Shown: positions 8,167 through 30,660, numbered from the stretch's first letter. The stretch: DNA of 32,000 nucleotides from Candidatus Lokiarchaeum ossiferum (GCA_025839675.1 CP104013.1:1920001-1952000); one strand, 5' to 3'. The notes: generated by a model from the sequence alone, not told the origin. Program-made: numbers and translations.

Positions 8167-8313
8167 CCCTCAACATCATGATGGTCTATGACCAATTTTA
8201 TTTAATTTCTAATTTTCAAAATAACTTCTGCCGTCTTTCCAGAAATCATTTTTTTTGATATCTTATTCTGGTTGGAGAGAGCTTTTTTCTTTCAAAATGA
8301 CTTATCAAAAACG

Positions 8314-8871: not shown

Positions 8872-9723
8872 ATCGTTTTCTCCTATCGTTTCAGGGATTT
8901 GGGTTTGATCTGCCAAAAGGTACACGTGAAAACATGCAAATTGATTTTCTTCCGATTCAAATTTTAGAAATCCTTCATAAACATCTAAAATCGTTTGGCA
9001 ATACGATAATCCCAAGCCTAAACCTTGATATTTCTCATCTTCCGGGAGAATTTCTTTAGTTTTTTTGGTAGTAAAGAACGGATTAAATATCTGATCACTT
9101 ATTTTAGCAGATACACCTAATCCATCATCATGAAAATCAATCACTACGTACGTTTTTTCCATGGATCCATGGGAAATAACTTCATTTCTAATCTTAATTT
9201 TCACAAGTTTCTTGTCTTCATTATATTGCGTATCTGTATATTTCTTTCGAAGAGAATAAATGGCATTATCTAAAATATTCATAAATACTTGCTGAATTTC
9301 ATCGCGTCTTACGAAGGAATGTGAAAATTTGGCTTCAGATTCCATTCGAATTTGAATTTGAGATTTGATAATGATCGGGTCCATTAACTTCAAAACACCC
9401 AATAAGATCTCTTCTAAATTACAACTTTTTGGAGTCTTAGAACTGGGGCGTGAAAAATCAAGAAGATTTTTAGTAATTTTCGCCACCCGTTGGCATTCCG
9501 AGAGAATTTCTTGCAGACTATCATAATGTTCAGAAGCAGATGTTAAGGTAAGAGACCCATGTTCTTGAATATCCTCTAATATCAACGAAATATAGTTTTG
9601 TATAATCATTACAGGATTATTAATTTCGTGGGCGACTCCCGAAGCCATTTTACCCAATAAAATAAATTTTTCCGAATCAAGAACTTTTTGAACTATTTCA
9701 TGATTAGCCTTTGTTTCATTCAT
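8857..9723 (-). CDS. Sensor-less (minimal) histidine kinase, DHp + HATPase_c only
   Basis: H-box is MASGVAHEINNPV, N-box is MNILDNAIYS, G1 is DDGLGV and G2 is QGLGLGLSYC. The track start at 9849 overlaps the thiolase 3' end. The internal ATG at 9721-9723 (MNETKANHEIV...) is the plausible start. There is no TM segment or PAS/GAF-sized N-terminal region. Confidence 0.8.
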   Translation of the reverse strand: MNETKANHEIVQKVLDSEKFILLGKMASGVAHEINNPVMIIQNYISLILEDIQEHGSLTLTSASEHYDSLQEILSECQRVAKITKNLLDFSRPSSKTPKSCNLEEILLGVLKLMDPIIIKSQIQIRMESEAKFSHSFVRRDEIQQVFMNILDNAIYSLRKKYTDTQYNEDKKLVKIKIRNEVISHGSMEKTYVVIDFHDDGLGVSAKISDQIFNPFFTTKKTKEILPEDEKYQGLGLGLSYCQTILDVYEGFLKFESEENQFACFHVYLLADQTQIPETIGENDLVTF

Positions 9724-9800
9724 CCGATATCTACATAAGTTGGGGATACTAAAAAATAATTTCCATTTAGAACTAACAAGAAAAATAAAAAAAAGGGGAA

Positions 9801-11033
9801 TTAAAGGCGTTCTAAATACACAGCTTCTGAAACACCACCGCCACCACAAAGTGTGGCCAATCCTTTGGTATTACCAGAATGAATTAATTCATATAGAAGA
9901 GTAACCATAATTCTTGCCCCTGTACAACCTACAGGATGACCTAACCCTATTCCAGATCCATGAACATTAGTTACTTCCCGATTCAATCCTAATTCTCGTT
10001 CACAAGCTAAATATTGAGAAGCGAAGGCTTCATTGATTTCGATTCGTTCAAAATCGCTTAAATTCATGCCGGTGCGTGCTAACAAATTCTTTGTTGCCGG
10101 AACTGGACTCAATCCCATGTGTTCAGGCTCACAACCTCCCATTCCAAAACCACCAAATCGAGCCAAAGGTTTTAGTCCAAGTTCTTTTGCTTTATCCGCT
10201 GCCATAATGACCATTGCAGCAGCCCCATCATTGATTCCAGAAGCATTGCCAGCAGTAACCGTGCCCGTTTTTGGAATAAAAGCAGGACGCAGTTTGGCGA
10301 GTTTTTCCATGGTTAGTCTAGGTTGGAAATGTTCATCCTTGCTAACAATAATTTCACCTTTCCGTCTATCTTTAACAGTAATAGGCACCATTTCATCATC
10401 AAAGATACCTTCTACATTTGCTCTTTCAGCTTCATTGTGTGAACGAAGAGCTACTTCATCTTGTTCTTCTCGAGTAAAATTGAATTTTTGAGCGAGAAAT
10501 TCGGCGGTTAATCCCATAATATATGGTTTTCCACGAGCCCATTCAATGGCACCGTCATTAGGATATTTTACAAAATGACTTCCTGCATGTAATCCATGGA
10601 TCAACCCATCCTTAAATGTTTTATCTTGTAGTCGGCAACCCCATCGAGCTTCTTCAACAACATATGGAACGTTAGACATAGATTCCATCCCACCCACCAA
10701 AACAACATCAGAAACACCAGATTGAATTTGCCAAACACCAGACATCGTTGCTTCCATTCCACTTATACATACACGATTGATTGTCACCGCAGGAATAGTA
10801 TTGGGAATTCCCGCTAATAAAGCCGATACTCTAGCAACATTCAATGCATCAACAGGCTCTAAACAACATCCAAACCGTACGTCTTGCAAAATATTCGGAT
10901 CAATTTCTGCCCGTTTAATAGCTTCGGTCATCACTGCGGCCCCAAGATGAGGTGTTTGCACTTTTTTTAACGACCCACCAAAAGCTCCAATAGGAGTTCG
11001 ACAGGCACTAACAATTACTACTTCACGTGTCAT
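9801..11033 (-). CDS. Acetyl-CoA C-acetyltransferase (thiolase II type)
   Basis: MTREVVIVSACRTPIGAFGGSL is a canonical thiolase N-terminus. The nucleophile Cys is in VNRVCISGMEA. The C-terminal motifs are NVHGSGIGLGHPVGCTGARI and LCGGGGVSEAV. The track start at 11237 adds 68 hydrophobic, low-complexity residues and is probably not real. ATG at 11031-11033 is preferred. Confidence 0.9.
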   Translation of the reverse strand: MTREVVIVSACRTPIGAFGGSLKKVQTPHLGAAVMTEAIKRAEIDPNILQDVRFGCCLEPVDALNVARVSALLAGIPNTIPAVTINRVCISGMEATMSGVWQIQSGVSDVVLVGGMESMSNVPYVVEEARWGCRLQDKTFKDGLIHGLHAGSHFVKYPNDGAIEWARGKPYIMGLTAEFLAQKFNFTREEQDEVALRSHNEAERANVEGIFDDEMVPITVKDRRKGEIIVSKDEHFQPRLTMEKLAKLRPAFIPKTGTVTAGNASGINDGAAAMVIMAADKAKELGLKPLARFGGFGMGGCEPEHMGLSPVPATKNLLARTGMNLSDFERIEINEAFASQYLACERELGLNREVTNVHGSGIGLGHPVGCTGARIMVTLLYELIHSGNTKGLATLCGGGGVSEAVYLERL

Positions 11034-14490: not shown

Positions 14491-14502
14491 AATCTTTTTT
14501 TT
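14491..14502 (+). terminator. Oligo-T tract downstream of polB (candidate archaeal terminator)
   Basis: A T8 run at 14495-14502 lies about 23 nt after the polB TAA, in the 28-bp gap between convergent genes. Archaeal RNA polymerase terminates at oligo-T tracts. This is sequence context only. Confidence 0.3.
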
Positions 14503-15043
14503 AGAGATTTTTCTTAAATTCGGGTAATTCTCGGAGTTTTGTAATAACTTTTTCAACTTCTTGGCGTGAGTTGAACGGAATAGTTGCCACAAGCGATTTT
14601 ATTAGGGGTTGAAAATTGGGAGTAGTTTGCTGAGAAATCGGAATCATTTTTTTTAAAATGGTAACTATGAGATTTTCGTTTAGAAATAGATAATATGGTT
14701 TAATATAAATCACCATGGGACCATATTGCCACGTTTTAGATAAACTGTACATTGCTTTATGGAGTTTTTGTTCAGACCAATCAATATTTTTGATGATTTC
14801 TTCTTCGCGAGCAATTTGAAATTTCAACAAAATTTTCATTAAAGGATTATATTTCAAACGATTTATTGACCCCGGACTCGAGACCAGATAATAGAAAAGC
14901 ATAATTAGTAACATTCCACCAATGGTAAGTATACCAACCAATTCCGACACTAAAGTGTACAACAGAATGCTAATAGCAATAATAATTATAAAAATAAACA
15001 TTTCCAAAAATTGCGGAAGATATTTTCGTAGTCGATATAACAT
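14501..15043 (-). CDS. Hypothetical membrane protein (two N-terminal TM helices plus a soluble C-terminal domain)
   Basis: Hydrophobic segments FIFIIIIAISILLYTLV and VGILTIGGMLLIMLFYYLV. It lies 55 bp downstream of, and co-oriented with, the C25 peptidase gene. No recognisable motif. Confidence 0.55.
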   Translation of the reverse strand: MLYRLRKYLPQFLEMFIFIIIIAISILLYTLVSELVGILTIGGMLLIMLFYYLVSSPGSINRLKYNPLMKILLKFQIAREEEIIKNIDWSEQKLHKAMYSLSKTWQYGPMVIYIKPYYLFLNENLIVTILKKMIPISQQTTPNFQPLIKSLVATIPFNSRQEVEKVITKLRELPEFKKNL

Positions 15044-15098
15044 GAAATTTCACTAATCCCTAATGCACAATCATTAATTAATACTAATCACTTTGATT

Positions 15099-17300
15099 TT
15101 AATCGTTCCTAGAGAAATTTTTGACCACTTCTTCAAATTGATCAGAAAGAATATCATCAAATGAAAGTTCTAATGTTAATTCAGTTAATTTTTTCTTTTT
15201 TCTGAAAAGATTAATAGAAACAAAAGCCGCAATTCCCATTGCAACAACACTAAAATTCAAAATAGATAATATATAGAATTGTAAGGGGGTTTTAATTTTA
15301 AAATTGTACTCTTGAAGAGAATAAAATGTAGTATTTCCATGATTCATATAATCGTATGCAATTATCCCATACTGATACGTGCCATAGTCAAGTAATGGTA
15401 ATTCTATACCAAAATTGCGGGAAAAATTAATGGATTCCATTTCATAGAGCGTATAGTTAGCAAACTCAGAATTACTAAACACTAAATATCCCCTACAAAC
15501 CCCCACCCCGCTATCATCCAAGGTAGCAGTAATTGTTATTTTATCTGATACGGTAGGATTTTGAGGAAAAATCTCAATAGAACTAATTTTAGGAGTGATA
15601 TCATCTAAAAGCACATCAAAAGATCCAAACACAGGAATAAAATTATGGGCAAAAATGGAATAGTTTAATGAAAATTGGCCATGAGGTAAGAAGAAGGAAA
15701 CAACTCCATCTTTCCCTCCCTTTACTTGAAAATATTTATTGTCAGAAAATAATGTTAAGGTGGCGTTGGGGACGATATCTCCATTCTGGTCAGTAAGCTG
15801 GAATGAATATTTTCCTCCTTCATAGACTTGATCTCCAAGAGCCAAGAGGGGTGAAATTGCGGTTGGGGAGGACGTGTAAATATCCACACTCGGATCTCCA
15901 ACTAATGCATACGTAAGTAAAGATTTTCGTTCCATTTCAAAATAGGAAAAATTATAATTGCTTTCTGCATCTAAAAACCATTCACTGTTTGCGTACGCCC
16001 ATTTTGATTCATATAACGCTTTTCCTTGTTGATAATGCCCATTTTCAAACATCTCTCGCATAAAAAGTTTAAATAGAGCCCGATTATCATACTCTAAATC
16101 CACATCTCCAGGATAGTACCATGATAGACGAAGTGCTCCAATATAACCGATCCCAGCATTACCCTGTGAAAGGACAAATTCTTCACCTAATGTATCCCCA
16201 TCAAATCTATTTGTGGAACATGCATCGGCATATATCATTGAATACCTGCCATAATTTGTGAGACTTGAAACATCGCTTGAGCTTAAAGCATATTTCGCAG
16301 AAAATGCAGACGCACTCCCATGACCAGCATAAGCTAGGATTGAAGCCCCATTATTAATGGCAGTTAAAGCTTTGGTCTTGGTCAAAATACTGACCCTCGA
16401 ATCCTCAATAGGAGTATAATAAGAATTTTCATAATAATGAACCCAATCCATGTTTCCTTCAATTAGATTATCAATAATATATTGACTGACCACACCCTCG
16501 TGTTCCCCATCAGGATCACCTTCTTCAGGATTTGGTCCATTGGAAAGGCCGGAAATACTCACATATCTCCCCATCCAATCTCCTGCATTCGATCCATTCT
16601 CATAAAAGATTGTTTTGTCAATGATACTATTCAATTCACTTATAGTGTTGGCGGGGAATCGCCCTACATACACTTCAGGATCATAATCTAACTCTTTTTC
16701 CCCTACTTTCGTGCTGCCATTCCATTCCCAATGTTCACCCCAATATTCATCCCCATCGATATTCCAATTACCCGTTAAATCGGCGTAATAGAAATCTGTG
16801 GGTTTTAAATACTCTGAACCAAAGTTCTCATTATCTTTTACAAGGGGCGTATCGGGATTATAAACATAGCGGATTGGAATTAAATCTGTATCACCCATCA
16901 ACAGGATCCATTCAATGGGATAGATTTCATAATAGGAAATTATAGCATTTCGAATCTTTTCGGGAATATCACGCCCTTCATACGCAGAAAAATTAGATAC
17001 TACCAGAGAAGGAATCCCTCGAGAAGATTTCCATGCTGCAAATTCTTCAGCCGCAACAATATAATCAGAAATATTGGGAGTAATCAATAGCATTGTATAA
17101 TTAACATCATACCACGATTCACTTATCTCAGATTTAACCTTGGTTGCAACTTCTCCCATCATCTCATCAATTATAGTTGAATCTATGGCAGATACAAATG
17201 CAACATTCGAATTTTCAGCATTAAAAAGAAAACTTACACATAAAAGTGATAGAACTAATGCAAGAGATGCTTTTTTTGATCGAATTATAATATTTGACAT
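15099..17300 (-). CDS. Extracellular clan CD cysteine peptidase, family C25 (gingipain-like), C-terminally membrane-anchored
   Basis: Signal peptide is MSNIIIRSKKASLALVLSLLCVSFLF. C25-type blocks are ILLMGDTDLIPIRYVY, PTDFYYADL and PEVYVGRFPA. The catalytic His context is ILAYAGHGSASAF and the catalytic Cys context is MIYADACSTNRF. Ig-like/carboxypeptidase-regulatory-like repeats follow. Then comes the TM helix ILSILNFSVVAMGIAAFVSINLF, RKKKK and a 30-aa acidic tail. Confidence 0.8.
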   Translation of the reverse strand: MSNIIIRSKKASLALVLSLLCVSFLFNAENSNVAFVSAIDSTIIDEMMGEVATKVKSEISESWYDVNYTMLLITPNISDYIVAAEEFAAWKSSRGIPSLVVSNFSAYEGRDIPEKIRNAIISYYEIYPIEWILLMGDTDLIPIRYVYNPDTPLVKDNENFGSEYLKPTDFYYADLTGNWNIDGDEYWGEHWEWNGSTKVGEKELDYDPEVYVGRFPANTISELNSIIDKTIFYENGSNAGDWMGRYVSISGLSNGPNPEEGDPDGEHEGVVSQYIIDNLIEGNMDWVHYYENSYYTPIEDSRVSILTKTKALTAINNGASILAYAGHGSASAFSAKYALSSSDVSSLTNYGRYSMIYADACSTNRFDGDTLGEEFVLSQGNAGIGYIGALRLSWYYPGDVDLEYDNRALFKLFMREMFENGHYQQGKALYESKWAYANSEWFLDAESNYNFSYFEMERKSLLTYALVGDPSVDIYTSSPTAISPLLALGDQVYEGGKYSFQLTDQNGDIVPNATLTLFSDNKYFQVKGGKDGVVSFFLPHGQFSLNYSIFAHNFIPVFGSFDVLLDDITPKISSIEIFPQNPTVSDKITITATLDDSGVGVCRGYLVFSNSEFANYTLYEMESINFSRNFGIELPLLDYGTYQYGIIAYDYMNHGNTTFYSLQEYNFKIKTPLQFYILSILNFSVVAMGIAAFVSINLFRKKKKLTELTLELSFDDILSDQFEEVVKNFSRND

Positions 17301-17569
17301 GGAGAATTAACTCAAGGTGAAATGGGAATATCAGTAATGCTTTTTTACTTAATCAAAACATGAATTCGCAACTTATATATCAATTGCTTTGGAAGTAAAA
17401 TAAGGAAATTTTTAATTGGTACACTCACTGACCGATTTGGTTTCCTATTTGAAAAATCGAAAATTTTTAATCTTAAGTGAAACTAAAAATATTGTTCTTC
17501 ATCAATTATGGTTGATTAATACATCTCTACAATAAATGATGCAGAAATCAAGAAAAAACTAAAAAAATT

Positions 17570-17645
17570 GCCAGTGTGGCTTAGTGGTTATAGCGCCTGA
17601 CTTGTAATCAGGTGGCCGTGAGTTCAACTCTCACCATTGGCTCCA
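17570..17645 (+). tRNA. tRNA-Thr (anticodon UGU), genomically encoded CCA
   Basis: Hand-folded cloverleaf. Acceptor GCCAGTG/CATTGGC has one G-U pair. Anticodon stem is CCTGA/TCAGG with loop CTTGTAA. T-arm is GTGAG-TTCAACT-CTCAC. Discriminator T is followed by CCA, then a T-rich tract. Confidence 0.9.
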
Positions 17646-17680
17646 TTCTTTTCTTTTATGATTCTTCCGACTTTGGCTTT

Positions 17681-18310
17681 TCAAGCTTGAAGATGGATTG
17701 ATTTTAATTCAGTTAAAAGAATTTTGTTTAAAAAATCATCCATGGAAAAATTCATAGGAATCCCAGAATATTTATGATTTCTTATTTCGATTTGAGGAAA
17801 AATACGAATAATTTCCAAGTAATGGGCAGTTAAAGCACCAAATAGAAATTTATTCACTCGAAACTCAAATTCAGGACTTTCTTCATTGGAAATATTTTCG
17901 TTAAAATAGAGATTAATAAATTCTTGTTGGGATTTTTCCACCTCAGAACTTGCTTCGCAAATGAGATTGTTGAAATCGGGAAGATTTTTATCTTCTCGCG
18001 GATGATTCTCGAGAAGATTGATAAGAGATTGCTTAATACTTACATTTATATTGAAGGTTCTACTAATCGGAAAAAATATCAATTGAATTGTCCTTGAGGG
18101 AACGGAATGAAAATGGTTTTCTCGATCTAAAAGACCTAAAACTTCCCTATTATCAAGGGAAGTAAGATGCCACGCCATTTGCAATGAATGTTCATTTAAA
18201 AAAGAACCAAATAAACGTAACGATGGGATATTAGAAAGGGAAATAGGAGGGTTTTTCTGGAGAGCAAACCATTCGGGAAGCAATAGGACCTCATAATCAA
18301 GCATAACCAT
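17681..18310 (-). CDS. Hypothetical protein
   Basis: A 209-aa ORF with no recognisable motif. It is the last gene of a co-directional minus-strand run. Confidence 0.5.
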   Translation of the reverse strand: MVMLDYEVLLLPEWFALQKNPPISLSNIPSLRLFGSFLNEHSLQMAWHLTSLDNREVLGLLDRENHFHSVPSRTIQLIFFPISRTFNINVSIKQSLINLLENHPREDKNLPDFNNLICEASSEVEKSQQEFINLYFNENISNEESPEFEFRVNKFLFGALTAHYLEIIRIFPQIEIRNHKYSGIPMNFSMDDFLNKILLTELKSIHLQA

Positions 18311-18398
18311 TTTTTAGATCATATCTAATAAGGATCTTTTTTTTTTTGAAGTCGACGAGTAAAATGATTTTTTAGATTTTTGTCGGAAGATGAAAAAA

Positions 18399-19637
18399 TT
18401 ACCGAAAATCAAACACCACTTTAATTGCTTGATTCTTTCCTTTAGTACGAGCTACCGCGATTGCTTTCTTATAATCGGCTATTTTATAAAAATGTGTCAC
18501 TAAACCTGTAAATTTTTGCGTATAAAGTGATAATAGATCGATTGCCCATTCAAATGCTGGTTTTGTCTCATTTTGGAAAGCTTCAATACCATGCACAAAA
18601 GCACCTCTTATAATAATTTCTTTATGAATTTGAAGAGACCAATCAATGTGCTTTGTAACTGTAAAACCCATTCCAATGAAGACAATTGTACCATGATGCT
18701 TGATCATGGACAAAGACTCATTTACAGTTTTCTCGCTGGCAACACAATCATAGATCATATCAGGACCTTTTTCACCATAGAGAACTGCAGGGGAAAGCGT
18801 AGGCTTAAATATTGTCCCTTGGGTAATATTGGCGATTTGTTTTTTTCTCTTAGAAAGATCTCGTTCTTGGATGACATGAGATGCACCCATCAATCGAGCT
18901 TTTTCTGCTTGAAATGCATATCTAGCGAGAGAGATAATGGCGACCTTTGGAAAAAAATGTTTTAAAACAAGAATAATCATTAAACCAATGATACCGGCAC
19001 CGATTACAACAGCAGTATCACTTCTTTGTGGAGGTGAATCTAATACAGCATGTATAGCAACAGCCAGTGGTTCAACCAAAACAGCATGCTCATCAGGAAT
19101 GATTTGCGGAATTTTGAACATTTGTTCTTGAAATCCCAAAAAAAATTCACTAAATCCACCTCCCCCAAATCCTCCAAAGGAATGAGTTTTTCGATAAGGA
19201 AGCGAGATTTCATGATCCATGCTATTACCAGCTATGCATAAACAAGCTTGAGGATTATTATTTTGACAACTTGGGCAAAGAGGTAAACCATAGGAATTGC
19301 ACGAGGCGATTGGAGTATAAACAACTCTATCACCAAGAGAAAAAGAAGTGACTTCTTTGCCAATTTCATCGATAACTCCTACTACTTCATGACCCAGAGG
19401 AAAAGGATTTTGAGGAGACGCAAGAATGCTCTCGTAAAGTGAAACATTTAGATCAATCTGATGCAAATCAGAAGTACATATCCCTCCTAAAAGGGATTTG
19501 ACTCGAATTTGAGTCGGATGACTTATTTCAGGAACTTTCCAAGCACGAGAATACTTGGTTAAAAGAAATGAAGAACCTAAATGGATTTTTTTCAAAATAA
19601 CTTTCCACATCTTAAAATCAAACATGAGAGCTTGCAT
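18399..19637 (-). CDS. Zinc-dependent alcohol/polyol dehydrogenase (MDR superfamily)
   Basis: GGICTSDLH (catalytic Zn Cys), GHEVVGVIDEIGKEV (GHE motif), structural Zn cluster CPSCQNNNPQAC, LVEPLAVA, and Rossmann VVIGAGIIGLM. The exact start among M1/M5/M10 is uncertain. Confidence 0.85.
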   Translation of the reverse strand: MQALMFDFKMWKVILKKIHLGSSFLLTKYSRAWKVPEISHPTQIRVKSLLGGICTSDLHQIDLNVSLYESILASPQNPFPLGHEVVGVIDEIGKEVTSFSLGDRVVYTPIASCNSYGLPLCPSCQNNNPQACLCIAGNSMDHEISLPYRKTHSFGGFGGGGFSEFFLGFQEQMFKIPQIIPDEHAVLVEPLAVAIHAVLDSPPQRSDTAVVIGAGIIGLMIILVLKHFFPKVAIISLARYAFQAEKARLMGASHVIQERDLSKRKKQIANITQGTIFKPTLSPAVLYGEKGPDMIYDCVASEKTVNESLSMIKHHGTIVFIGMGFTVTKHIDWSLQIHKEIIIRGAFVHGIEAFQNETKPAFEWAIDLLSLYTQKFTGLVTHFYKIADYKKAIAVARTKGKNQAIKVVFDFR

Positions 19638-19737
19638 ACATTGCTTTGTGGGAAATGTATTTTTATAATTTTCGCAATCTAAGAAGAATTGCTTAATTGA
19701 CGATTAAATCTATCTACAGTGTTGTTTTCAAATTTCA

Positions 19738-20193
19738 TTAGTAGAATTTTGGTGAGTTCAGATATTCTAACAAATCTGGATCTAAGCGAGTTTTGGCATG
19801 ATTTCGGACATCTACTGCCAAAAAAGACAACATATCATCATCAATCCCCGTAGCATCTAACCAAACATAACGAACCCATTCATTTAACATATCATCGGTA
19901 ACCGTTGAGTCTTTCAACAATTGTCGAACAGCGTCAATTTTCATGGTAAACGGAGTTTCGGTATGTTCTAGCATAAGTGCTATCGCCCAGAGGTTTAAAA
20001 TACCTTCTAATATGTCTTCATGTTCCACAAGATGAAACGCAGAGGCAAATAAATCTCGCTTTTTTTCAAGGGGGAAAGTTGAGGCAATGATATTTTTTGC
20101 CAATTCATCGATCCACTCAGATGTTAAATGAGTAGATATTGAATCCATCTTCTGAGCGAGGGCTGCATCTTCAATGATAAATTGCTTAATCAT
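19738..20193 (-). CDS. Hypothetical acidic, predicted all-helical protein
   Basis: A 151-aa ORF, 68 bp downstream of the 865-aa membrane protein on the same strand. No P-loop or other motif seen. Confidence 0.55.
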   Translation of the reverse strand: MIKQFIIEDAALAQKMDSISTHLTSEWIDELAKNIIASTFPLEKKRDLFASAFHLVEHEDILEGILNLWAIALMLEHTETPFTMKIDAVRQLLKDSTVTDDMLNEWVRYVWLDATGIDDDMLSFLAVDVRNHAKTRLDPDLLEYLNSPKFY

Positions 20194-20261
20194 AAAAATA
20201 TAACTGTACTTTTCCGCTAAATATTTTTCATAAAATAAATTTTGAATTTAAAGGAAAGATT

Positions 20262-22859
20262 TCATTCGAGATCAGCATCTGAAGGAATAGAAGGACTTAA
20301 ACCATCATTCGGACCAAAATTCTCAGGAAGTGAAACGTTTTCTTCTGATACCTGTTCTGCTTTAATTTGCGGGTTTAAAAATTTGGTATGAAAATATTGT
20401 TCTAATAATTGATTGAAATCCACCTGAATGGGCATTGTAGCGGCCAAAATTTCTTCAGTGATATATTTTTCTTTAAAGGAATTAATAAATTTTAGAATGG
20501 TTGACTCAATGAAACGTGGATGCATCCGTGAAAGTAAAATGAGCCAAAACCCATTTTCTTTGGTAATATTGAGATAACCCCCATCGATTTCAATAACTCG
20601 AGTATGCGATCCCGTTATCTCTTTTATAATGGATAAAATTCCCGTAAATGCCGCAGAAACGAGAATTATATCCTCCTGTACAATCATTTCGGAAAATTGA
20701 TGAGCTAAAGGCATCCCATTGTCATGCAACGTAATTACTCCAAGAACTGATTTTTTCACCTTTTCGCAATAGAAGAAGAATGAAAAACCACCAACAGATA
20801 CAGCACCGGCCACCACAAATAGATAAAGATACCATGGAAGTGGTTCGATGGTTTGAAAAGCATTTGAAAAAGTTTTGGCGCCTTGATAATAATCACTAAT
20901 AACCTCAACAGTTATAGAATAGTGATTTTCTTGAAGATCAGTGGGACTGGTCCAATTTAGATTCAAAGAAGAAATAAGACCATCAAAATTCTCATCATAA
21001 ACGGTTTGCAAAGCACCCATTTCATTTAGAGCATGCATTTGAACTTTAATCGATATCGGACGGCGTAAAGTGTTTTGAGTCAAATTTTCTTGCATCAAAA
21101 TGGAGTATAGTAAAGTATCCCCCGGTTTCAATTTAGAATTGGTCAATACTATGTCTATATTCACATCATTTTTCAAAATTTGAAGGTTTCTTAGATATTC
21201 TATTGAAGAAAATCCATCTTTAGTTGCTTCTATTTTTAAGGAATGATTTCCAGGGAGAAATCCATATTTATTTAGATCCAGATTAAAACTATACCAACCA
21301 TCCCCGATATCAACCATCTGAGCTTGAACTTCGTTAATGGTTAGAACTACTTCTGCATTTTCTATGGGAATTTTTGAATAATAATCTTGGTATAGACATA
21401 CGATTTCTAGGGTTTCAAACGCAGGTGTGAAGTAATTTTGTGCGATAAGATTGCCTTTTAGGAGTAAAGATAGAGGTAAACTCAAAATACCAAGTTCATT
21501 CTCTCCATAGTACACTATATCGATAGAAAGAACATCATTCACTTCGTATGGATCTATATACCAATCATACTCACAACTTTGAACGTCTTGAAAAGATTGT
21601 AAAGGCTGTAAAAAATTAAGATTATTTAAAAATAACGAGATATCCCCTACTGCATAGCAGTCCACTACAATTTTCACTACTTCTCCTAGAATGATAGAAC
21701 TTGGAACTGATGCTTGAGCAATATAGTTTGGACTTAAAAAATTCAAATTCTGACTTGGAAAATCCGAAACTAGAAGATTTGATGATGAAATTTCATAGGC
21801 AACGGAAGAATTTCCATCCCACAGCTCAATATTTGTATAATCACTTTGCATTCCATAAATTAGCTTTCTATATGATTGAATTGAAAAACCGGCGGGTAAT
21901 TCTGAAAATGACAAATTCCATTGAAAATCATTTACTCGCTGAGTGATTTCGTATTCTATTGGCTCTATTCGAGAATAATTCACATCCATCATGTAATTAA
22001 TCAAGATATTACTCGAAGAGTTATCTGTTATAATAAGATCATTTGGGATATCATCTAAATTAAACGCTAAATCAACTTTTCCATAATTCGAGAGATAGTT
22101 GACAATCTTGTGAGAACCGAGATGTAAATCAATATCTTCGGGTGACAAAAATTGCGTTAAATTGATTCTCATGGAAATATCATAACCACATGAAATCCAG
22201 TTTGCCCCATCATTATACCAGGTTTCAGATTCATTATTTCCACCACCACAAGACTTCAAATAACTTTCTCCCATTGTGGAGTGATACTCTAAATAATATT
22301 TACCTGGATTTAGAAAGATGGGTACTGAAGGAGTAAAGGTGTTCCACCCTTTTGATGTAAATATAGTACTTTCACTGAATACTACCGTACCTGTTTTGCT
22401 ACCCTCACGGATATTAAATAGAAATTCTGAATCGGCTTTATCTTTCTCCATATACAAAGAAAAGTCAAGTATGGAAGAAGCGTAGTCAGTTTGCCATGCT
22501 TGCGAATACTTATAATTGTTAGTTAAAGCATTCTCATCTCCCTCATAAAAAACGGGAGGTATAATAGACTTATTCTGACATTCAAAAATCACAGTTCCAT
22601 CAAAATGATCAAACTCTTCAGGAATAGGAAAAATTAATTCTGAGTTATATTTTTGCCATGGATATTGATTTAAGATATGCTCTTCAGCAGAAAAATTAAA
22701 TTTATTAGAATAATCAAAATCATAACTACTTGCCGAAAAAATTTTTTGAGGAGTTTCCTCACCTTGAATTCGGGTTGAATTAACGGTTACCAATGAAAAA
22801 CACGCGAAACTTGTAATATAGATACTAAAAATGAGGAAAAGTCGTTTAGTATTTTTCAT
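20262..22859 (-). CDS. Single-pass membrane protein: signal peptide, ~670-aa sequon-rich ectodomain, TM helix, cytoplasmic Roadblock/LC7- or longin-like domain
   Basis: Signal is MKNTKRLFLIFSIYITSFACFSL. The TM helix WYLYLFVVAGAVSVGGFSFFFYC is at nt 20766-20840, followed by EKVKK. In the cytoplasmic region, nt 20466-20747 encode VLGVITLHDNGMPLAHQF...ILVSAAFTGILSIIKEITG..RVIEIDGGYLNITKENGFWLILLSR..RFIESTILKFINSF. That pattern reads beta-beta-alpha-beta-beta-beta-alpha, typical of Roadblock/longin modules. The C-terminal tail is acidic. Confidence 0.8.
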   Translation of the reverse strand: MKNTKRLFLIFSIYITSFACFSLVTVNSTRIQGEETPQKIFSASSYDFDYSNKFNFSAEEHILNQYPWQKYNSELIFPIPEEFDHFDGTVIFECQNKSIIPPVFYEGDENALTNNYKYSQAWQTDYASSILDFSLYMEKDKADSEFLFNIREGSKTGTVVFSESTIFTSKGWNTFTPSVPIFLNPGKYYLEYHSTMGESYLKSCGGGNNESETWYNDGANWISCGYDISMRINLTQFLSPEDIDLHLGSHKIVNYLSNYGKVDLAFNLDDIPNDLIITDNSSSNILINYMMDVNYSRIEPIEYEITQRVNDFQWNLSFSELPAGFSIQSYRKLIYGMQSDYTNIELWDGNSSVAYEISSSNLLVSDFPSQNLNFLSPNYIAQASVPSSIILGEVVKIVVDCYAVGDISLFLNNLNFLQPLQSFQDVQSCEYDWYIDPYEVNDVLSIDIVYYGENELGILSLPLSLLLKGNLIAQNYFTPAFETLEIVCLYQDYYSKIPIENAEVVLTINEVQAQMVDIGDGWYSFNLDLNKYGFLPGNHSLKIEATKDGFSSIEYLRNLQILKNDVNIDIVLTNSKLKPGDTLLYSILMQENLTQNTLRRPISIKVQMHALNEMGALQTVYDENFDGLISSLNLNWTSPTDLQENHYSITVEVISDYYQGAKTFSNAFQTIEPLPWYLYLFVVAGAVSVGGFSFFFYCEKVKKSVLGVITLHDNGMPLAHQFSEMIVQEDIILVSAAFTGILSIIKEITGSHTRVIEIDGGYLNITKENGFWLILLSRMHPRFIESTILKFINSFKEKYITEEILAATMPIQVDFNQLLEQYFHTKFLNPQIKAEQVSEENVSLPENFGPNDGLSPSIPSDADLE

Positions 22860-22914
22860 AAGTATCCAACCTCAGAAACCCACTTTCTATATGTATCTAT
22901 ATGAGCTCTGATAT

Positions 22915-23520
22915 TTATTTAAATTTGGGTTTATTTTTTAAAAATAATTCTTCAAAGGTGGATTCTTGAATTTCTTCACTCTTTTCAATTTTAGCACGAT
23001 TAGCAGTTACTAGATTATCCAAACGTTGCCGAATAAAACCAATATGCTCATGAAATTTCGCTGAATGTTCAGCATGAGCGGATTTTAAGAGAGAGAGAAT
23101 ATTCTTTTCTTCATTCTTCAATTGGATTTGAGATTGAATGGTAATTGGAATAGGATAACTAACTAATTTTCCTTCTTTAAATTCTAAATGTAACTTCTCT
23201 TCAATCATAGATTTAAGCTGTTTAATTTGGGTAAGCGAATTTTCAAGGATCGCAATTTGTACATCAGTCTTATTTAGCAATTCCTCAGAGAGTGCTTTAG
23301 CAATTTCATCGTCCACCGATTGGAGAATTCTATTTTGTATTTTTAAAATTTCAGTTTCGAATTTTTGATATAAAATTAAATTCTTGTGACGATGAGCCAA
23401 TATCGCTCCATCAAGTAATTCCGGAAAAATTGTGAGATAATCGGGAGAATTTCCATCCCTATAACGTTCTGGTAATGTGTGGGATAACGGATCTAAGTCC
23501 AACTCGTGGTTCACCATCAA
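22915..23520 (-). CDS. Hypothetical coiled-coil protein
   Basis: The 201-aa product has a central region with heptad-like character, rich in Leu/Ile/Glu/Lys/Gln (ILKIQNRILQSVDDEIAKALSEELLNKTDVQIAILENSLTQIKQLKSMIEEKL). It lies 55 bp upstream of the 865-aa gene on the same strand. Confidence 0.6.
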   Translation of the reverse strand: MMVNHELDLDPLSHTLPERYRDGNSPDYLTIFPELLDGAILAHRHKNLILYQKFETEILKIQNRILQSVDDEIAKALSEELLNKTDVQIAILENSLTQIKQLKSMIEEKLHLEFKEGKLVSYPIPITIQSQIQLKNEEKNILSLLKSAHAEHSAKFHEHIGFIRQRLDNLVTANRAKIEKSEEIQESTFEELFLKNKPKFK

Positions 23521-23741
23521 AAAATTCTTCCAACTTTGTTTTGAATACTACAATTTTATTATAGTAATTTTGCAATAAAAAACATCATAATTTGAATTAT
23601 TTGACTCAGTTCAAAACAATATCTCTGAATTTTTTATTTTAATAGATTCGGTTTTAAATTTCATTTTTTTTCATATTCTTTGCTTATTTATCTAATATTA
23701 AAAATATGTTAATGAAAAAAATCGAATTTCAAAAATTATAT

Positions 23742-24179
23742 TCATTTTTCATAGGTTTCCAGAGAAATCATAGTTTTAGAAGCTTGTATCCCAGGAATAT
23801 TTCGCAAATCATCAATTATAAAACGATCAAGTTCATGGATGGAATGAACTCGAAACTTAACGATTATATCTGTATCGCCCGTAATTATTGATGCTTCTTC
23901 AACTTCAGGGCGTTTTAATAAGTGATGTACGATATCCCGCTGATTTGCTTGAAATACTTTAATCAAAATATAGGCAATGATATTTCCTGAAATTTGATCT
24001 TTATCCAAATTCACGGTATAATTTTTGATAATCTTATGTTCTCGTAACTTTTTGATACGATTATGTACCGTAGTTGAAGGTAAATTAGTCCTTTCTGCAA
24101 TTTTTGCAATAGAAAGGCTAGCATCTTGTTGGAGGACAGCAATTATATCAATATCCTTTGTATCAAGCTTATAATTCAT
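23742..24179 (-). CDS. Lrp/AsnC family transcriptional regulator
   Basis: N-terminal HTH LDTKDIDIIAVLQQDASLSIAKIAERTNLPSTTVHNRIKKLREHKIIKNYT, followed by a C-terminal RAM/ligand domain. The 145-aa size is typical. Confidence 0.9.
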   Translation of the reverse strand: MNYKLDTKDIDIIAVLQQDASLSIAKIAERTNLPSTTVHNRIKKLREHKIIKNYTVNLDKDQISGNIIAYILIKVFQANQRDIVHHLLKRPEVEEASIITGDTDIIVKFRVHSIHELDRFIIDDLRNIPGIQASKTMISLETYEK

Positions 24180-24545: not shown

Positions 24546-25481
24546 ATGTTAGAAATAGAAACTACAAGAAGTTCATTTACATATGATGATACCCGTTTAA
24601 TGGCATTGCTGAAAATTCAGACAGAAATGCTAAAATCAATCCATGATTTTCTCTATGAGAAGAAATTGGTTCAACTCATGCCAGTTATCTTATCTCCAAT
24701 AACAGATCCCTTGAATCATTCAGTCTATGATGCGAGCATCACTTACGGAGAACAAAAATTTCAATTAACAAAGAGTATGATTTTTCATAAACAACTCGCC
24801 ATTGGTGCCACATCAGGTCCTGGTATTTATATAATGTCACCAAATGTCAGGTTGGAAAAAGAAACGATGCAACAATCTGGACGACATCTCTTTGAATTCT
24901 CTCAAGTAGATATTGAATTGCGGGGAGCTTCCACCCAAGATTTTATGGATTTCATGGAAGATCTTATCATCGCTACCTTAATTCACATTAAACAAAAATG
25001 TTCTGACGAAGTCGCAATTTTTGAGTCAAGATTAAAAATACCCTCCAAACCATTTCGAGTGTATAACAGTTTTAACTTAAGGGAACAATTTGGGGATGAT
25101 TTTGAACAAATAATGTCTTCCACTTCAACAGATTTTTTCTGGATTATGGACTATACTCGTGAATTTTATGATAAAGAAGATCCTGAACGTAAAGGACATT
25201 ACATCAACTATGATTTATTTTATCCTTACGGTTTCAATGAAGCCCTTTCGGGAGGAGAACGGGATTATGAATATAAGATCCTTCTAAGAAAAATTAAGGA
25301 ACGCAACCAAGATCCCCAGATTTTTGACTTCTACTTAAAAGCAGCAAAAGAAGGGAAACTGACCTCTAGCGCGGGAGGAGGTCTAGGATTAGAACGATTT
25401 TTACGATATATACTTAAAAAATCAAATATAGGAGATATTTGCCTTTTTCCAAAAATTCCAGGCCAAAAAGTGCGAATTTAG
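24546..25481 (+). CDS. Class IIb aminoacyl-tRNA-synthetase catalytic core without an anticodon-binding domain (archaeal AsnA-like asparagine synthetase / AsnRS paralog)
   Basis: Motif 2-like is VRLEKETMQQSGRHLFEFSQVDIEL. FWIMDYTREFYDKEDPE...YDLFYPYGFNEALSGGERDY matches the Asp/Asn-RS active-site block. Motif 3 is AGGGLGLERFLRYIL, ending ...FPK. At 311 aa it lacks an N-terminal OB-fold. Confidence 0.75.
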   Translation: MLEIETTRSSFTYDDTRLMALLKIQTEMLKSIHDFLYEKKLVQLMPVILSPITDPLNHSVYDASITYGEQKFQLTKSMIFHKQLAIGATSGPGIYIMSPNVRLEKETMQQSGRHLFEFSQVDIELRGASTQDFMDFMEDLIIATLIHIKQKCSDEVAIFESRLKIPSKPFRVYNSFNLREQFGDDFEQIMSSTSTDFFWIMDYTREFYDKEDPERKGHYINYDLFYPYGFNEALSGGERDYEYKILLRKIKERNQDPQIFDFYLKAAKEGKLTSSAGGGLGLERFLRYILKKSNIGDICLFPKIPGQKVRI

Positions 25482-25517: not shown

Positions 25518-25943
25518 TTAATTTTCATCATACGCTAGTTGCATCCATTCCAGAAATTCTGCATCCAGCTCTTTTTGAGATCTGATACTTAGTTGATAAT
25601 AAAATCTTCCATCCTTTTGATGGGATGATGCTGTAAAACGGGAACTGAATAGCTGGGTAAATAGCCGAAAGATTATTTTCAACGCTTTTTTTTGAATTTT
25701 AATGGAGCAAAATTGTGACTGTTTTTTTAAAGCAATTATATTTTTTAAAGACTCAACCGAAATCGGTCCGAATTTCTGTACTTGGGAAACAAAATCTCTA
25801 AATAATCGCGCAGTTTCCACAGGAATATTATTTAGATGATGATCTTCAATCGAGTATAACTCACAACTATGACTTTGATTCTTTCGGGTGAAAGTTCTTC
25901 TACAATTCGGACATATCCAAAGTGATTTGTGCATTTTTGGCAT
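25518..25943 (-). CDS. Zinc-finger protein, DUF5655-like
   Basis: WICPNCRRTFTRKNQSHSC at the N-terminus and ELDAEFLEWMQLAYDEN at the C-terminus match the pattern I recall for DUF5655. The family number is from memory. Confidence 0.55.
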   Translation of the reverse strand: MPKMHKSLWICPNCRRTFTRKNQSHSCELYSIEDHHLNNIPVETARLFRDFVSQVQKFGPISVESLKNIIALKKQSQFCSIKIQKKALKIIFRLFTQLFSSRFTASSHQKDGRFYYQLSIRSQKELDAEFLEWMQLAYDEN

Positions 25944-26037: not shown

Positions 26038-26418
26038 TTAATGGATCAATTCTGGTGAAAATACAATTAACGAACGGGCAATTGCGCTAATAGGAAACGG
26101 TTTTTTAAAAACTCTCCTTACAAACACCATTTTTTTGATTCTTTCACTCAGCCCATCCAGATCACTAGTCATTACAAACACGGGTATCTCCGGAAAATTC
26201 TGTTCAACAAAATTTACGATTTCTCCCCCATCCATCCCAGGCATATGAAAATCCGTTAAAATAAAGTTGATTTTAGTTGAAAGCAAAATATCAACCGCTT
26301 CGACACCATTTTGGGCAGTTATTACATTAACTCCAAGTTTTTTACATAAACGGGTTAACATTGTTAGAATATCGGTGTCATCATCCACAATCAACCCTTT
26401 TCCACCTAGCATGATCAT
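26038..26418 (-). CDS. Single-domain response regulator (CheY-like receiver)
   Basis: GLIVDDDTDIL (acidic pocket), ILTDFHMPGMDG (phospho-acceptor Asp context), VFVMTS, and FKKPF (conserved Lys). The track start at 26493 adds a Cys/Ile-rich leader. ATG at 26416-26418 or 26410-26412 is preferred. Confidence 0.85.
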   Translation of the reverse strand: MIMLGGKGLIVDDDTDILTMLTRLCKKLGVNVITAQNGVEAVDILLSTKINFILTDFHMPGMDGGEIVNFVEQNFPEIPVFVMTSDLDGLSERIKKMVFVRRVFKKPFPISAIARSLIVFSPELIH

Positions 26419-26539
26419 TCTCTCCGTGTGATTATTGGTATTATCTTTTATCAGAATATAAAAACAACACAATATTGTGATAACATCCCCCATTTGGTAA
26501 GCATGGATTAAAAATTAAAATTATGGTAGGTAAAAAAGA

Positions 26540-28716: not shown

Positions 28717-30660
28717 TCAACTCTCCTTTCGACAATTATAGCAATAATCAGGCACATTTAAAGGAGCCCCACAATGAGAACAATATTTATTTTTTTTCTT
28801 TTTTTCTTTTAAAAGTCTTTTTTGCTGAATATTGTTAGGCTGTGAAAATTTTTTCCGGATAATGTTTCTAGCATAAAAGGTGAGAAATATAATTACGGGA
28901 GACAAAAAGAACAATGTCGCCAGTATATTCATGAGAGGTGTATTTCGAAAACTTCCCGGAATTTTTTCATAAGTAAAATCCCATAAATAGAAGTACACTT
29001 TATTCAGAGAATTTCGGGCGAGATTCTCGCAACTAAAAGAATATACAGAATGTTTATTACTTGTAAATAAGAAAGAACAAGGTGCTAACTCAACAATCAT
29101 ATTTTGGAGTTCATGATAAATTTCTTCGCGTAAGGAGGGATTAGATTCAAATAATCCTTCATTCAATTTAGTATCAATAACGGAGTTATTGATAGAAACA
29201 TAATTATAATTAGATGTACTCAAGAATAAAGCGTTGAGAATATTACTTGGATCGTTGTAATTTGGTTCCCATTCCAACATAAATATTTGAAATTTATGAT
29301 CTGACAAACTACCCGGGAATTCTTTCCAAGTCATTCCATTTAATTCGAGCCTAATCCCTATTTTGGCGAAGGTTGCTTGACATAATTCTCCGATTTCTTC
29401 ATGTAATTTGTTATTTGAATTGTATCCATATTGATAAGTTTCAATAGTGATTGTCTCCCAATCTTCATCGGATGAACTATGTTGTATATGGGCCCAATTT
29501 TCAGGAGTATCCATGCCTTGTTCATTCATAGTCACTGCTTGTATCAAGTGCATTCGAGCTTCGGTTAAATTCATGGCTGGAGCAAAAATAGATGGATCAT
29601 GATATAATATTCCTTTTGGTATAGCAGAAGTCATCCTGGCCAACTCATTTCTACCCAAGTTCTTAATTATATAAGAATAATTGATGGCACTTTGTAAAGC
29701 TTTACGCGTGTGAACATCTAATCTGGTATTGTCAAAGCCTAAAAAACTAATATCAGTACTTGCCATCCTTTCTCTTACATTGTGATATTCACTGGCTTCA
29801 TATTCATCCATAAATTCTGTGGAAACATAATCTACAAAATCAAGATTTCCATTGAAAAAGTCCTGATTCTTATGGAGTTCATTATCATATAAAATCCAGT
29901 GCATTTCCAAAATATCAGGTGCCTCAACATAATAATTTCCACCCCAGTATTCTGTAAAGTATTCTAATTTGATTAATCGATCTTGATGGGAAACTTGTTG
30001 GTATGGTCCAGTTCCAATTAATGTGTCCTTCATAGGCTGTATAATATTATCCAGAGAAAAATAGTTGCCTTCTGGTAAAATAACCGACCCCGTGTGGCAC
30101 AATAAGGCTTCAAATGCAGTAAATTTGTAGTTTAAAACAAATCTTACATGAGTAGAATTTAATACTTCCGTGCGATTAATTAAAAGAGGAGTAACAGGAA
30201 AATTGGCTTTCAAGGGCATATATAATCTCGCAATTGGCGTGGGAGTCTGGTTTAAACAGAAAAGAGTTAATCTATCAAAAGAAAATACCACATCCTCAGG
30301 ACCAAATGAAGAATCATCATGGAATGATATATTTTGTTTTAACTCAAGAGTGTAATTCCATTGTGAATTGTAATATCCAAGATTAGATTTGACCCATTGC
30401 CCAAAATCTACAGCCAGCAGGGGCATAATTGAACACTCTGGATCAGTTAAATTATAAGAAAAAAGCCCTTCCATTATTTGATCGATCATTTCAAAGGAAG
30501 CACGGTCATTGGCCAAATGAGGATCTAGATCTACTGCAAGCAAAGATTTACCGTAAATCATGGGTCGATCTTCTAAATTAGATTCTCCAGAAGCTAGGAG
30601 GGGGTAGAATAAACATCCAGTTAGGAACATAAATAGAAGTATGAATGAATTTGTTTTCAT
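28717..30660 (-). CDS. Family-5 (Opp/Dpp/Nik-type) solute-binding protein with a C-terminal TM anchor and cytoplasmic zinc ribbon
   Basis: Signal is MKTNSFILLFMFLTGCLFYPLLASG. The SBP_bac_5-type N-terminal block is GKSLLAVDLDPHLANDRASFEMIDQIMEGLFSYN, and the ectodomain has a typical length. The TM helix LMNILATLFFLSPVIIFLTFY is at nt 28873-28935. It is followed by a basic linker and CSHCGAPLNVPDYCYNC (CxxC-x9-CxxC). Confidence 0.85.
   Translation of the reverse strand: MKTNSFILLFMFLTGCLFYPLLASGESNLEDRPMIYGKSLLAVDLDPHLANDRASFEMIDQIMEGLFSYNLTDPECSIMPLLAVDFGQWVKSNLGYYNSQWNYTLELKQNISFHDDSSFGPEDVVFSFDRLTLFCLNQTPTPIARLYMPLKANFPVTPLLINRTEVLNSTHVRFVLNYKFTAFEALLCHTGSVILPEGNYFSLDNIIQPMKDTLIGTGPYQQVSHQDRLIKLEYFTEYWGGNYYVEAPDILEMHWILYDNELHKNQDFFNGNLDFVDYVSTEFMDEYEASEYHNVRERMASTDISFLGFDNTRLDVHTRKALQSAINYSYIIKNLGRNELARMTSAIPKGILYHDPSIFAPAMNLTEARMHLIQAVTMNEQGMDTPENWAHIQHSSSDEDWETITIETYQYGYNSNNKLHEEIGELCQATFAKIGIRLELNGMTWKEFPGSLSDHKFQIFMLEWEPNYNDPSNILNALFLSTSNYNYVSINNSVIDTKLNEGLFESNPSLREEIYHELQNMIVELAPCSFLFTSNKHSVYSFSCENLARNSLNKVYFYLWDFTYEKIPGSFRNTPLMNILATLFFLSPVIIFLTFYARNIIRKKFSQPNNIQQKRLLKEKKKKNKYCSHCGAPLNVPDYCYNCRKES

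Follow-up and report, generated by a model that had tools for sequence, protein, structure and literature searches.

Dimers of Roadblock and longin domains serve as platforms for small GTPases, as in MglB, Ragulator, the Rag C-terminal domains, TRAPP, Mon1-Ccz1 and SRX (PMC10933270), and proteins with these domains are expanded in Asgard archaea (PMC10933270). Small GTPases number from dozens to more than 100 in these archaea, which also encode many Roadblock and longin proteins; what all these proteins do and how they reach a membrane without prenylation is an open question (PMC4917890, PMC10933270). Asgard GTPases come without lipid-anchoring systems (PMC4917890). Candidatus Lokiarchaeum ossiferum has a single membrane, no S-layer and many unidentified densities protruding from its surface (PMC9834061). 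Here we analyse a 32,000-nucleotide (nt) stretch of its genome (GCA_025839675.1, CP104013.1:1920001-1952000; the window, with positions counted from its first letter) and, within it, the gene for an 865-amino-acid (aa) surface protein, the receptor, whose cytoplasmic end carries a module that profile and model comparisons place in the Roadblock/longin superfamily. The receptor gene is flanked by genes for a 201-aa and a 151-aa protein.

Roadblock/LC7 proteins (PF03259: dynein LC7, bacterial MglB, the Asgard structures 7f8f and 9jq8) share with the module a core of five-stranded sheet and central helix and a similarity detectable at the level of sequence profiles (E = 1e-5). The central helix of the module, which is conserved, is the counterpart of the helix through which known members dimerise (PMC10933270). 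Known members are small soluble or GTPase-fused proteins, whereas the module forms the cytoplasmic end of an 865-aa type I surface protein; the end of a transmembrane (TM) helix takes the place of the Roadblock N-terminal amphipathic helix, and the module has extra C-terminal helices. Longin domains (Sec22b, VAMP7 and Ykt6; sigma/mu adaptins; zeta-COP; SRX of SRP receptor alpha) have the same order of elements and give the best whole-domain superpositions of the module (query-normalised TM-score, TMq, 0.53-0.64 over ~130 columns), but their sequence-profile similarity to it is negligible. SRX with SR-beta brings a longin-type fold and an Arf-like GTPase together at a membrane, and by analogy the module could pair likewise. 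In longin SNAREs the longin domain is N-terminal, a SNARE motif is present and the anchor is a C-terminal tail, whereas the receptor is of type I topology with a C-terminal module and no SNARE motif; also unlike a longin SNARE, it has no coiled-coil segment between module and membrane by hydropathy or in the AlphaFold model.

Ragulator, in which LAMTOR1-anchored Roadblock dimers dock Rag GTPases on lysosomes, embodies the same concept of a membrane-held platform for GTPases without lipid anchors. LAMTOR4/5, and also EGO-TC, are among the structural matches of the module, and the 201-aa neighbour may have an analogue in LAMTOR1, a helical accessory protein. In Ragulator, however, it is a separate subunit that is lipidated, and there is no ectodomain, whereas the receptor combines a covalent TM anchor with an ectodomain, and any Rag-like partner of it is putative. 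The Streptomyces conservon (CvnA sensor kinase, CvnB Roadblock, CvnC, and CvnD small GTPase), described as resembling a G-protein-coupled system (PMC4316618), joins a membrane sensor, a Roadblock protein and a GTPase, but its Roadblock is a separate protein within a fixed four-gene operon with histidine kinase and GTPase, whereas the Roadblock-like domain of the receptor is fused. By Pfam, NCBIfam and window scans, the receptor is free of kinase domains and the cluster encodes neither DUF742 nor a GTPase, and the four-gene set of the conservon is not matched. In the searchable literature we found no description of a protein that joins a large type I ectodomain to a Roadblock or longin domain on the cytoplasmic side, in agreement with a preliminary description of this locus that knew of no such system; an earlier Lokiarchaeum longin/Roadblock census (Klinger et al. 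2016) or the asCOG tables may count the domain without comment. The receptor is a new architecture built on an already known fold.

The cytoplasmic module belongs to the Roadblock/longin superfamily

The receptor gene and the parts of its product are located as follows (ORF, open reading frame; pLDDT, predicted local distance difference test).

20262..22859, minus strand: gene for the 865-aa type I membrane protein NEF87_001588 (ORF with 100% identity to NEF87_001588)
22779..22859, minus strand: signal peptide or signal anchor, residues 1 to ~27 (hydropathy 6-27; AlphaFold helix 4-19)
20835..22778, minus strand: ectodomain, residues ~28-675 (all-beta by AlphaFold, with ~5 PKD/Ig/macroglobulin-like sandwich domains)
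20766..20834, minus strand: single TM helix, residues 676-698 (hydropathy 677-698; AlphaFold helix 676-702)
20370..20765, minus strand: cytoplasmic module assigned to the Roadblock/longin superfamily, residues 699-830 (family profile, AlphaFold, Foldseek)
20265..20369, minus strand: acidic C-terminal tail, residues 831-865 (pLDDT <50; variable across the family)

Searched singly against Pfam, NCBIfam and the PDB, the 151-, 865- and 201-aa proteins gave no family match, and the Roadblock link surfaced only through a family profile. We aligned 26 family modules (alignment A1) and compared the hidden Markov model of this alignment with PDB sequences. Fifteen of the 16 matches at E <= 10 are Roadblock/LC7 proteins, and none of the 16 is a longin chain. 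The best match is the Asgard Robl_LC7 protein 7f8f (7f8f_A; E = 1e-5, profile positions 6-78), followed by dynein light chain roadblock (E = 0.006-0.09), aligned over profile positions 2-79. Longin support at the level of sequence profiles is confined to one of the 26 modules, which matches Fuz_longin_1 or Intu_longin_1 at E = 0.05-0.08. The A1 consensus reads S..G.MILH..G.P.A..IS......D..LISGA..G...LI.EITG..LRTI.IEGGY, and its most conserved motif, L[IV]SGAxxGxxSLIKEITG, lies in the central helix.

The AlphaFold2 model of the module built with A1 (pLDDT 88.3; predicted TM-score, pTM, 0.82) has the order b-b-a-b-b-b-a-a-a, with strands at module positions 7-14, 19-24, 55-60, 63-70 and 73-79 and helices at 33-49, 83-101, 104-109 and 117-125. 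Strands b1 (VLGVITLH) and b2 (PLAHQF) are followed by the central helix IILVSAAFTGILSIIKE, and strands b3 (TRVIEI), b4 (GYLNITKE) and b5 (FWLILLS) by the helix PRFIESTILKFINSFKEKY. Every element of the beta-beta-alpha-beta-beta-beta-alpha pattern that the preliminary description had read from hydrophobicity is reproduced. The model contains the Roadblock core fold, in which a long helix connects b2 to b3 in an antiparallel sheet of five strands (b1-b2, b3-b4-b5).

In a Foldseek search of the PDB, the best 50 matches listed all belong to one superfamily, being longin or Roadblock structures, and 26 of the 50 have E <= 0.001. The longin matches (Sec22b, VAMP7, Ykt6, sigma/mu adaptins, zeta-COP, sedlin, Mon1/Ccz1) extend over the entire model, with TMq 0.53-0.64 and with Sec22b, VAMP7 and Ykt6 superposed at TMq 0.59-0.64 and a root-mean-square deviation of 3.2-4.4 A over 123-136 columns. 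The Roadblock matches (LC7, LAMTOR4/5, C7orf59-HBXIP, EGO-TC, Nprl in GATOR1 and Prometheoarchaeum Roadblock2, 9jq8) cover the 75-100-residue core of the module. According to Tran et al. (PMC10933270), Roadblock domains have an N-terminal and a C-terminal helix, whereas longin domains have no N-terminal helix and a second C-terminal one. The Roadblock N-terminal amphipathic helix is missing from the module model, in which only a four-residue helical turn precedes b1, and the module conforms to the longin topology b-b-a-b-b-b-a-a, with no N-terminal helix and at least two C-terminal helices. By this helix criterion together with the profile matches, the module is longin-like in topology yet Roadblock-like in sequence. 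Family profile, AlphaFold and Foldseek agree in assigning it to the Roadblock/longin superfamily, the fold that had been proposed for the cytoplasmic region before any database search.

Topology and ectodomain of the receptor

At the N-terminus of the receptor a basic n-region (K2, K5, R6) precedes a hydrophobic core, and a low-confidence linker follows the helix at residues 4-19 in the AlphaFold model. The full-length model, computed from the family alignment without locus-derived rows, has a pLDDT of 77.9 overall and of 80-94 over residues 57-670. A basic juxtamembrane helix (CEKVKK) extends the TM helix to residue 702, whereas the residues preceding the TM helix are not basic, and in the full-length model helix 676-702 abuts strand b1 at residue 705. 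Because the TM helix runs directly into b1, the membrane anchor takes the place of the N-terminal helix of Roadblock domains.

The orientation of the protein is indicated by charge and by the distribution of N-X-S/T sequons across 21 family members. Lys and Arg average 4.6 in the 15 residues after the TM helix, compared with 1.1 in the 15 residues before it, and sequons number 2.97 per 100 aa in the ectodomains and 0.49 in the cytoplasmic parts. Since basic residues follow the TM helix and sequons concentrate outside, the C-terminal module is placed in the cytoplasm; a C-terminus inside the cell is strongly supported for the family by these sequence features, which contradict an extracellular placement. 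Signal peptide, single TM helix, Ig-like ectodomain and cytoplasmic C-terminal domain had all been predicted from the sequence alone, and each is corroborated here, the first two by hydropathy and AlphaFold and the ectodomain (~650 aa of PKD/Ig/MG-like sandwiches) by AlphaFold, Foldseek and profile. The sequon richness claimed for the ectodomain holds for the family, with 418 ectodomain sequons observed against 196 +/- 12 expected from composition, but is weak for the window protein taken alone (14 against 9.4 +/- 2.8 expected), in which 12 of the 14 lie in the ectodomain.

The ectodomain retrieves only strings of macroglobulin (MG)/Ig-like domains in Foldseek (complement C3/C5, A2M, CD109, PorU), at very low global TM-scores. 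Its family profile weakly matches the PKD domains of KIAA0319L (E ~1e-3) and an S-layer protein (E = 0.05), and its scattered, sub-threshold Pfam matches (MG2, Big_7, SpaA and others) agree with sandwich domains. No catalytic or thioester domain is evident in the ectodomain by Pfam, profile or Foldseek. From model and matches, the ectodomain is predicted to be a generic extended surface stalk or adhesin-like structure. At the other end of the protein, the last 40 residues carry a net charge of -6, and a linear motif common to the C-terminal tails of the family was sought and not found.

A protein family of Lokiarchaeia with a constrained interior and a variable exterior

A word-indexed search with the 865-aa protein found a single relative (63% identity), and one with the domain profile found a single fragment. 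An exhaustive HMMER search with residues 699-832 returned 31 cluster representatives, 22 of them at E <= 1e-10. Most members are 850-900 aa long, with the module at ~700-830, and their ectodomains are homologous too. The named members all come from metagenome-assembled genomes (MAGs) of Promethearchaeota/Lokiarchaeia, where they are labelled 'hypothetical', 'COG1470 family' or 'carboxypeptidase-like regulatory domain'. Genome scans for related loci, made with a 7-sequence subset of the 26-module alignment, added Promethearchaeum syntrophicum MK-D1 and several Promethearchaeum MAGs. As far as sampled, the architecture appears by sequence to be restricted to Lokiarchaeia (Lokiarchaeum, Promethearchaeum and related MAGs), and at least one genome apparently has more than one paralogue: MK-D1 encodes two receptors in tandem (locus L015, 5126-7771 and 7934-10435; NZ_CP042905.2 within 3446760-3465184, reversed).

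Several members depart from the common plan. P0024 (939 aa) continues beyond the module for a further ~100 aa, a C-terminal region that contains a CPVC motif, and P0010 (185 aa) and P0052 (225 aa) consist of a short extracellular stub, a TM helix and the module with little else, and may be minimal membrane-anchored forms or truncated gene calls. A divergent member with 28% module identity (P0019, 916 aa) lies at 8001-10751 of L028 (Logan SRR22273277_956), a contig from the same sequencing run as the window contig, from which it differs in GC content (0.40 vs 0.34) at a tetranucleotide correlation of 0.95; P0019 may be a second L. ossiferum paralogue. It shares its gene context with P0009 in L008, namely Peptidase_M42 upstream and a DUF4011 helicase downstream.

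Selective constraint was compared between the window and the orthologue on a 39-kb contig, L007, using nonsynonymous divergence (dN) rather than ratios because synonymous divergence (dS) is saturated. The module has a dN of 0.049 and is 92% identical, against 64% for the whole protein. The dN is 0.10 for the TM helix, 0.19-0.30 for the proximal ectodomain and 0.34 for the acidic tail, and it is highest in ectodomain residues 31-240 (0.51, 44% identity), the fastest part of the protein and one that evolves ten-fold faster than the module. For calibration, the Lrp regulator encoded upstream has a dN of 0.058 and ADH one of 0.113. In its rate of evolution the inside of the receptor resembles a core regulatory protein, and the outside an exposed surface.

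A possible docking platform for small GTPases

Known domains of this superfamily are GTPase platforms, Asgard GTPases come without lipid anchors and the Lokiarchaeum surface is decorated with proteins, and on these grounds the reading that we favour, at a likelihood that falls a little short of even, is that the receptor acts as a membrane-anchored docking platform with a GTPase or a GTPase regulator as its client. By analogy with Roadblock and longin dimers, the module would dimerise through its highly conserved central helix and form a fixed docking site for a soluble partner on the inner face of the membrane. The likeliest partner would be an Arf/Rag/Rab-like small GTPase of these archaea or a regulator of one, and the 201-aa protein would be a further candidate partner, as a clade-specific accessory in the Lokiarchaeum and P0005 clades. 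Such a platform would link what the fast-evolving ectodomain contacts at the surface to processes that GTPases control within the cell, with signalling in either direction.

A neighbourhood that hints at a GTPase client is that of L026, where the receptor (8001-10580) is preceded at 6268-7835 on the plus strand by a 151-aa ORF, an Arf/RagA-like GTPase of 178 aa and a Ras-like GTPase of 170 aa, all co-directional with the receptor and separated by gaps of 17, 47 and 166 bp. This 151-aa ORF, which is unrelated to the window's 151-aa protein, may itself be longin/Roadblock-like; it shows weak similarity to the module's first half (hhalign E = 2.4e-4, probability 44%). As a hint of a GTPase link the arrangement, read from gene order, is suggestive but anecdotal. 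In L010, a leucine-rich-repeat protein and a Ras-like GTPase are encoded 1.5 kb upstream of the receptor with an opposite-strand gene between, and in L008 an Arf/Rag-like gene lies 4 kb away on the other strand; the remaining lineages, six in number, have no small GTPase near the receptor.

Several observations weigh against a GTPase client. Around the receptor in ~10 independent lineages there are ~4 small GTPases in ~150 genes, roughly the genomic background, and the 32-kb window contains no GTPase family match and no P-loop ORF; neither the three proteins of the cluster nor any other window ORF of at least 80 aa has a P-loop, which for the two flanking proteins had been noted previously and is upheld by the ORF scan. 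The closest sequence relatives of the module are LC7-type Roadblocks, which are structural dimerisation subunits in dynein and not GTPase regulators, and Pfam Robl_LC7 (PF03259) is matched by only 5 of the 26 modules, all below threshold (best E = 0.0055), and not by the window protein. The 201-aa protein, being absent from most lineages, cannot be essential to the core function of the family. Enrichment of small GTPases in receptor neighbourhoods, considered as a general feature, was rejected because the rate is about that of the background in these GTPase-rich genomes.

The main rival, which we consider doubtful though a serious contender, is that the receptor is an abundant coat or adhesin protein of the S-layer-less Lokiarchaeia, with the module as a dimerisation or oligomerisation foot, which may tie the protein to the cortical cytoskeleton, and no GTPase involved. 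Such a structural anchor would account for the LC7-type character of the best sequence matches, for a GTPase neighbour that is not conserved across lineages, and for a generic PKD/Ig/MG-like ectodomain of the sort found in archaeal surface proteins, with its weak S-layer match; the many unordered surface densities on L. ossiferum (PMC9834061) would offer it a place. It fits less well with the constraint on the module, whose dN of 0.049 is about that of the Lrp/AsnC regulator (0.058) and whose surface-loop residues KEITG are invariant, a combination that suggests a specific partner rather than self-association alone. The dedicated cytoplasmic neighbour gene (that of the 201-aa protein) and the adjacent GTPase pair of one lineage (L026) also tell against a purely structural role.

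A bolder form of the docking-platform reading, and an unlikely one, is that these receptors supply the devices, so far missing, that recruit Asgard small GTPases to membranes in place of the lipid anchors of eukaryotes, the TM-anchored longin/Roadblock dimer docking and regulating specific Arf/Rag/Rab-like GTPases according to the contacts of the ectodomain. If so, Lokiarchaeia would have a direct route from surface contact to GTPase-controlled remodelling of cytoskeleton or membrane, and the receptor would represent a prokaryotic forerunner of Ragulator-like, SRP-receptor-like or adaptor-like platforms. The family offers a concrete, testable contact point between the cell exterior and the Asgard GTPase/Roadblock machinery, and experiments are possible because members of it occur in both of the Lokiarchaeia available in culture, L. 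ossiferum and P. syntrophicum MK-D1. It may also help to assign the unidentified surface densities seen by cryo-tomography. Even as a dimerisation foot only, the module would be an unannotated domain family and the 201-aa protein an unannotated partner family.

Neighbouring genes of the receptor

The genes around the receptor gene are as follows.

22915..23520, minus strand: gene for the 200/201-aa cytoplasmic protein NEF87_001589 (ORF with 100% identity to NEF87_001589)
19738..20193, minus strand: gene for the 151-aa acidic protein (ORF; a neighbour of the receptor gene only)
23742..24179, minus strand: gene for a regulator of the Lrp/AsnC family (Pfam AsnC_trans_reg and HTH_24)
24546-25481, plus strand: asnA, asparagine synthetase A (archaeal-type, AsnRS-like; NCBIfam E = 5e-102)

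The three ORFs of the cluster, their common strand and the gaps between them (68 bp between the 151- and 865-aa genes, 55 bp between the 865- and 201-aa genes) are as first described, as is the acidity of the 151-aa protein (27 Asp and Glu against 14 Lys and Arg); the 201-aa ORF begins one codon later in public gene calls, which gives 200 aa. The trio is included in eight co-directional genes at 14501-24179, a block syntenic with a relative, and because it is embedded in this run its co-directionality alone says little.

The preliminary description treated the three genes as a signalling cluster with the Lrp/AsnC regulator directly upstream, and of this unit the pair of receptor and 201-aa gene stands. 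Homologues of the 201-aa protein (E = 1e-10 to 1e-9) occur in the P0005 clade (L009, L013, L019) directly downstream of a receptor whose module is only 47% identical to that of the window, and all five detected members of the 201-aa family, which keep the motif L[VL][QS]YPIPx[TS]I, are encoded no more than two genes away from a receptor gene, and their arrangement relative to it is of two kinds. The other sampled lineages, outside the Lokiarchaeum and P0005 clades, have no 201-aa homologue near the receptor. The 201-aa protein has no hydrophobic segment by hydropathy, and the matches of its family profile in the PDB and Pfam, such as Cmr4 (E = 0.02), are all at chance level. Between the window and L007 its C-terminal half (dN 0.047) is as constrained as the receptor module, and its N-terminal half has a dN of 0.169. 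A Shine-Dalgarno (SD)-like TGAGG lies 11-15 nt upstream of the receptor ATG and is kept in L007; this sequence arrangement fits co-transcription of receptor and 201-aa gene. In the P0005 clade the 201-like gene and the receptor gene point towards each other and so are not co-transcribed.

The 151-aa gene and the regulator fare less well as cluster members. In L007 the Lrp gene is followed by one for a 206-aa paralogue of the 201-aa protein, by an opposite-strand gene for a multi-TM protein, and then by the 201-aa gene and the receptor, which are again 55 bp apart. Between the receptor and the 151-aa gene stand two unrelated genes, one of them on the opposite strand, and beyond the 151-aa gene come ADH, a 207-aa gene and a C25 peptidase. 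Of the three-gene order, the adjacency of 201-aa gene and receptor is conserved and the 151-aa gene is displaced. It is separable from the receptor because two unrelated genes intervene in L007, and among the lineages compared it is present only in the window and L007. Two genes of L007 are missing from the window, namely that of the 206-aa paralogue (8381-9001, plus strand; 32% identity to the 201-aa protein), which adjoins the Lrp gene, and that of the 220-aa multi-TM protein (9046-9708, minus strand), which is on the other strand.

The regulator gene does lie upstream on the same strand as the receptor gene, but it is arranged divergently with asnA across 366 bp, a pairing also found in L007, and a T8 run follows its stop codon. 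The asnC-asnA pairing is classical and known from E. coli. That the Lrp/AsnC-asnA pair mirrors it is a more economical reading than membership of the cluster, and the Lrp/AsnC gene is probably a separate transcription unit. AsnC-type genes also occur near the receptor in L007, L009 and L013, at a distance of 1.5-3 kb in the P0005 clade.

A three-component signalling operon of the 201-, 865- and 151-aa genes under the upstream Lrp/AsnC regulator is therefore a reading to which we give little credence. The short gaps of 55 and 68 bp, the SD-like element kept before the receptor gene, the recurrence of the 201-aa gene beside the receptor and that of AsnC-type genes nearby in two clades are what it would explain. 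It is contradicted by the two unrelated genes, one on the opposite strand, that part the 151-aa gene from the receptor in the nearest relative and by the lack of a 151-aa gene in any other lineage, by a regulator paired divergently with asnA and followed by the T8 run, and by the convergent orientation of the 201-like gene in the P0005 clade.

ESCRT genes near the receptor in Promethearchaeum

In the Promethearchaeum loci (L012, L014-L017) the receptor gene lies a few kb upstream of Vps4, ESCRT-II and EAP30 genes, and in L012 it is also downstream of two Snf7 genes and so inside an ESCRT gene neighbourhood; in L029, Vps28 and Yip1 genes are near the receptor. The Promethearchaeum proximity is weak functional evidence because it amounts to synteny within one genus. 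These neighbours would suit a sorting or trafficking device in which the longin-type module marks the protein, or a patch of membrane, for remodelling machinery such as ESCRT, and which could act during the formation of protrusions or vesicles. We judge such a device quite improbable. Points in its favour are that the best full-length structural likeness of the module is to SNARE longins and the small chains of adaptors (TMq ~0.6), that the Promethearchaeum receptor lies between Snf7 and Vps4/ESCRT-II genes, and that Vps28 and Yip1 genes lie near the receptor in L029. But the ESCRT proximity is seen in one genus only, where it may be inherited synteny, the Lokiarchaeum window has no ESCRT gene, and the receptor has a type I topology, is not tail-anchored and is missing the SNARE motif.

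Very improbable, finally, is a small-molecule sensor in which a module of the profilin-like/GAF-like alpha-beta sandwich class would report a cytoplasmic metabolite outward (inside-out), for although the alpha/beta sandwich shape is common to ligand-binding folds, no GAF, PAS or profilin structure is among the best 50 Foldseek matches and none was matched in the profile or Pfam searches.

Other genes of the window

A soluble HisKA/HATPase_c histidine kinase (8857-9849, minus strand), a stand-alone receiver-domain protein (26038-26493, minus strand) and a DUF5655 protein (25518-25943, minus strand) are conventional two-component parts with no evident link to the receptor. The same co-directional block that holds the trio contains the gene for a 733-aa Peptidase_C25 protein of the gingipain/PorU-like type (15099-17300, minus strand; Pfam E = 1.5e-59), syntenic in L007. 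With its N-terminal signal sequence and C-terminal TM anchor it is a surface protease, and PorU is also among the structural matches of the receptor ectodomain. A 647-aa extracellular solute-binding protein (SBP_bac_5) is encoded at 28717-30660 on the minus strand; a protein of the SBP_bac_5 class is the only heavily N-glycosylated protein found in P. syntrophicum (PMC11284389).

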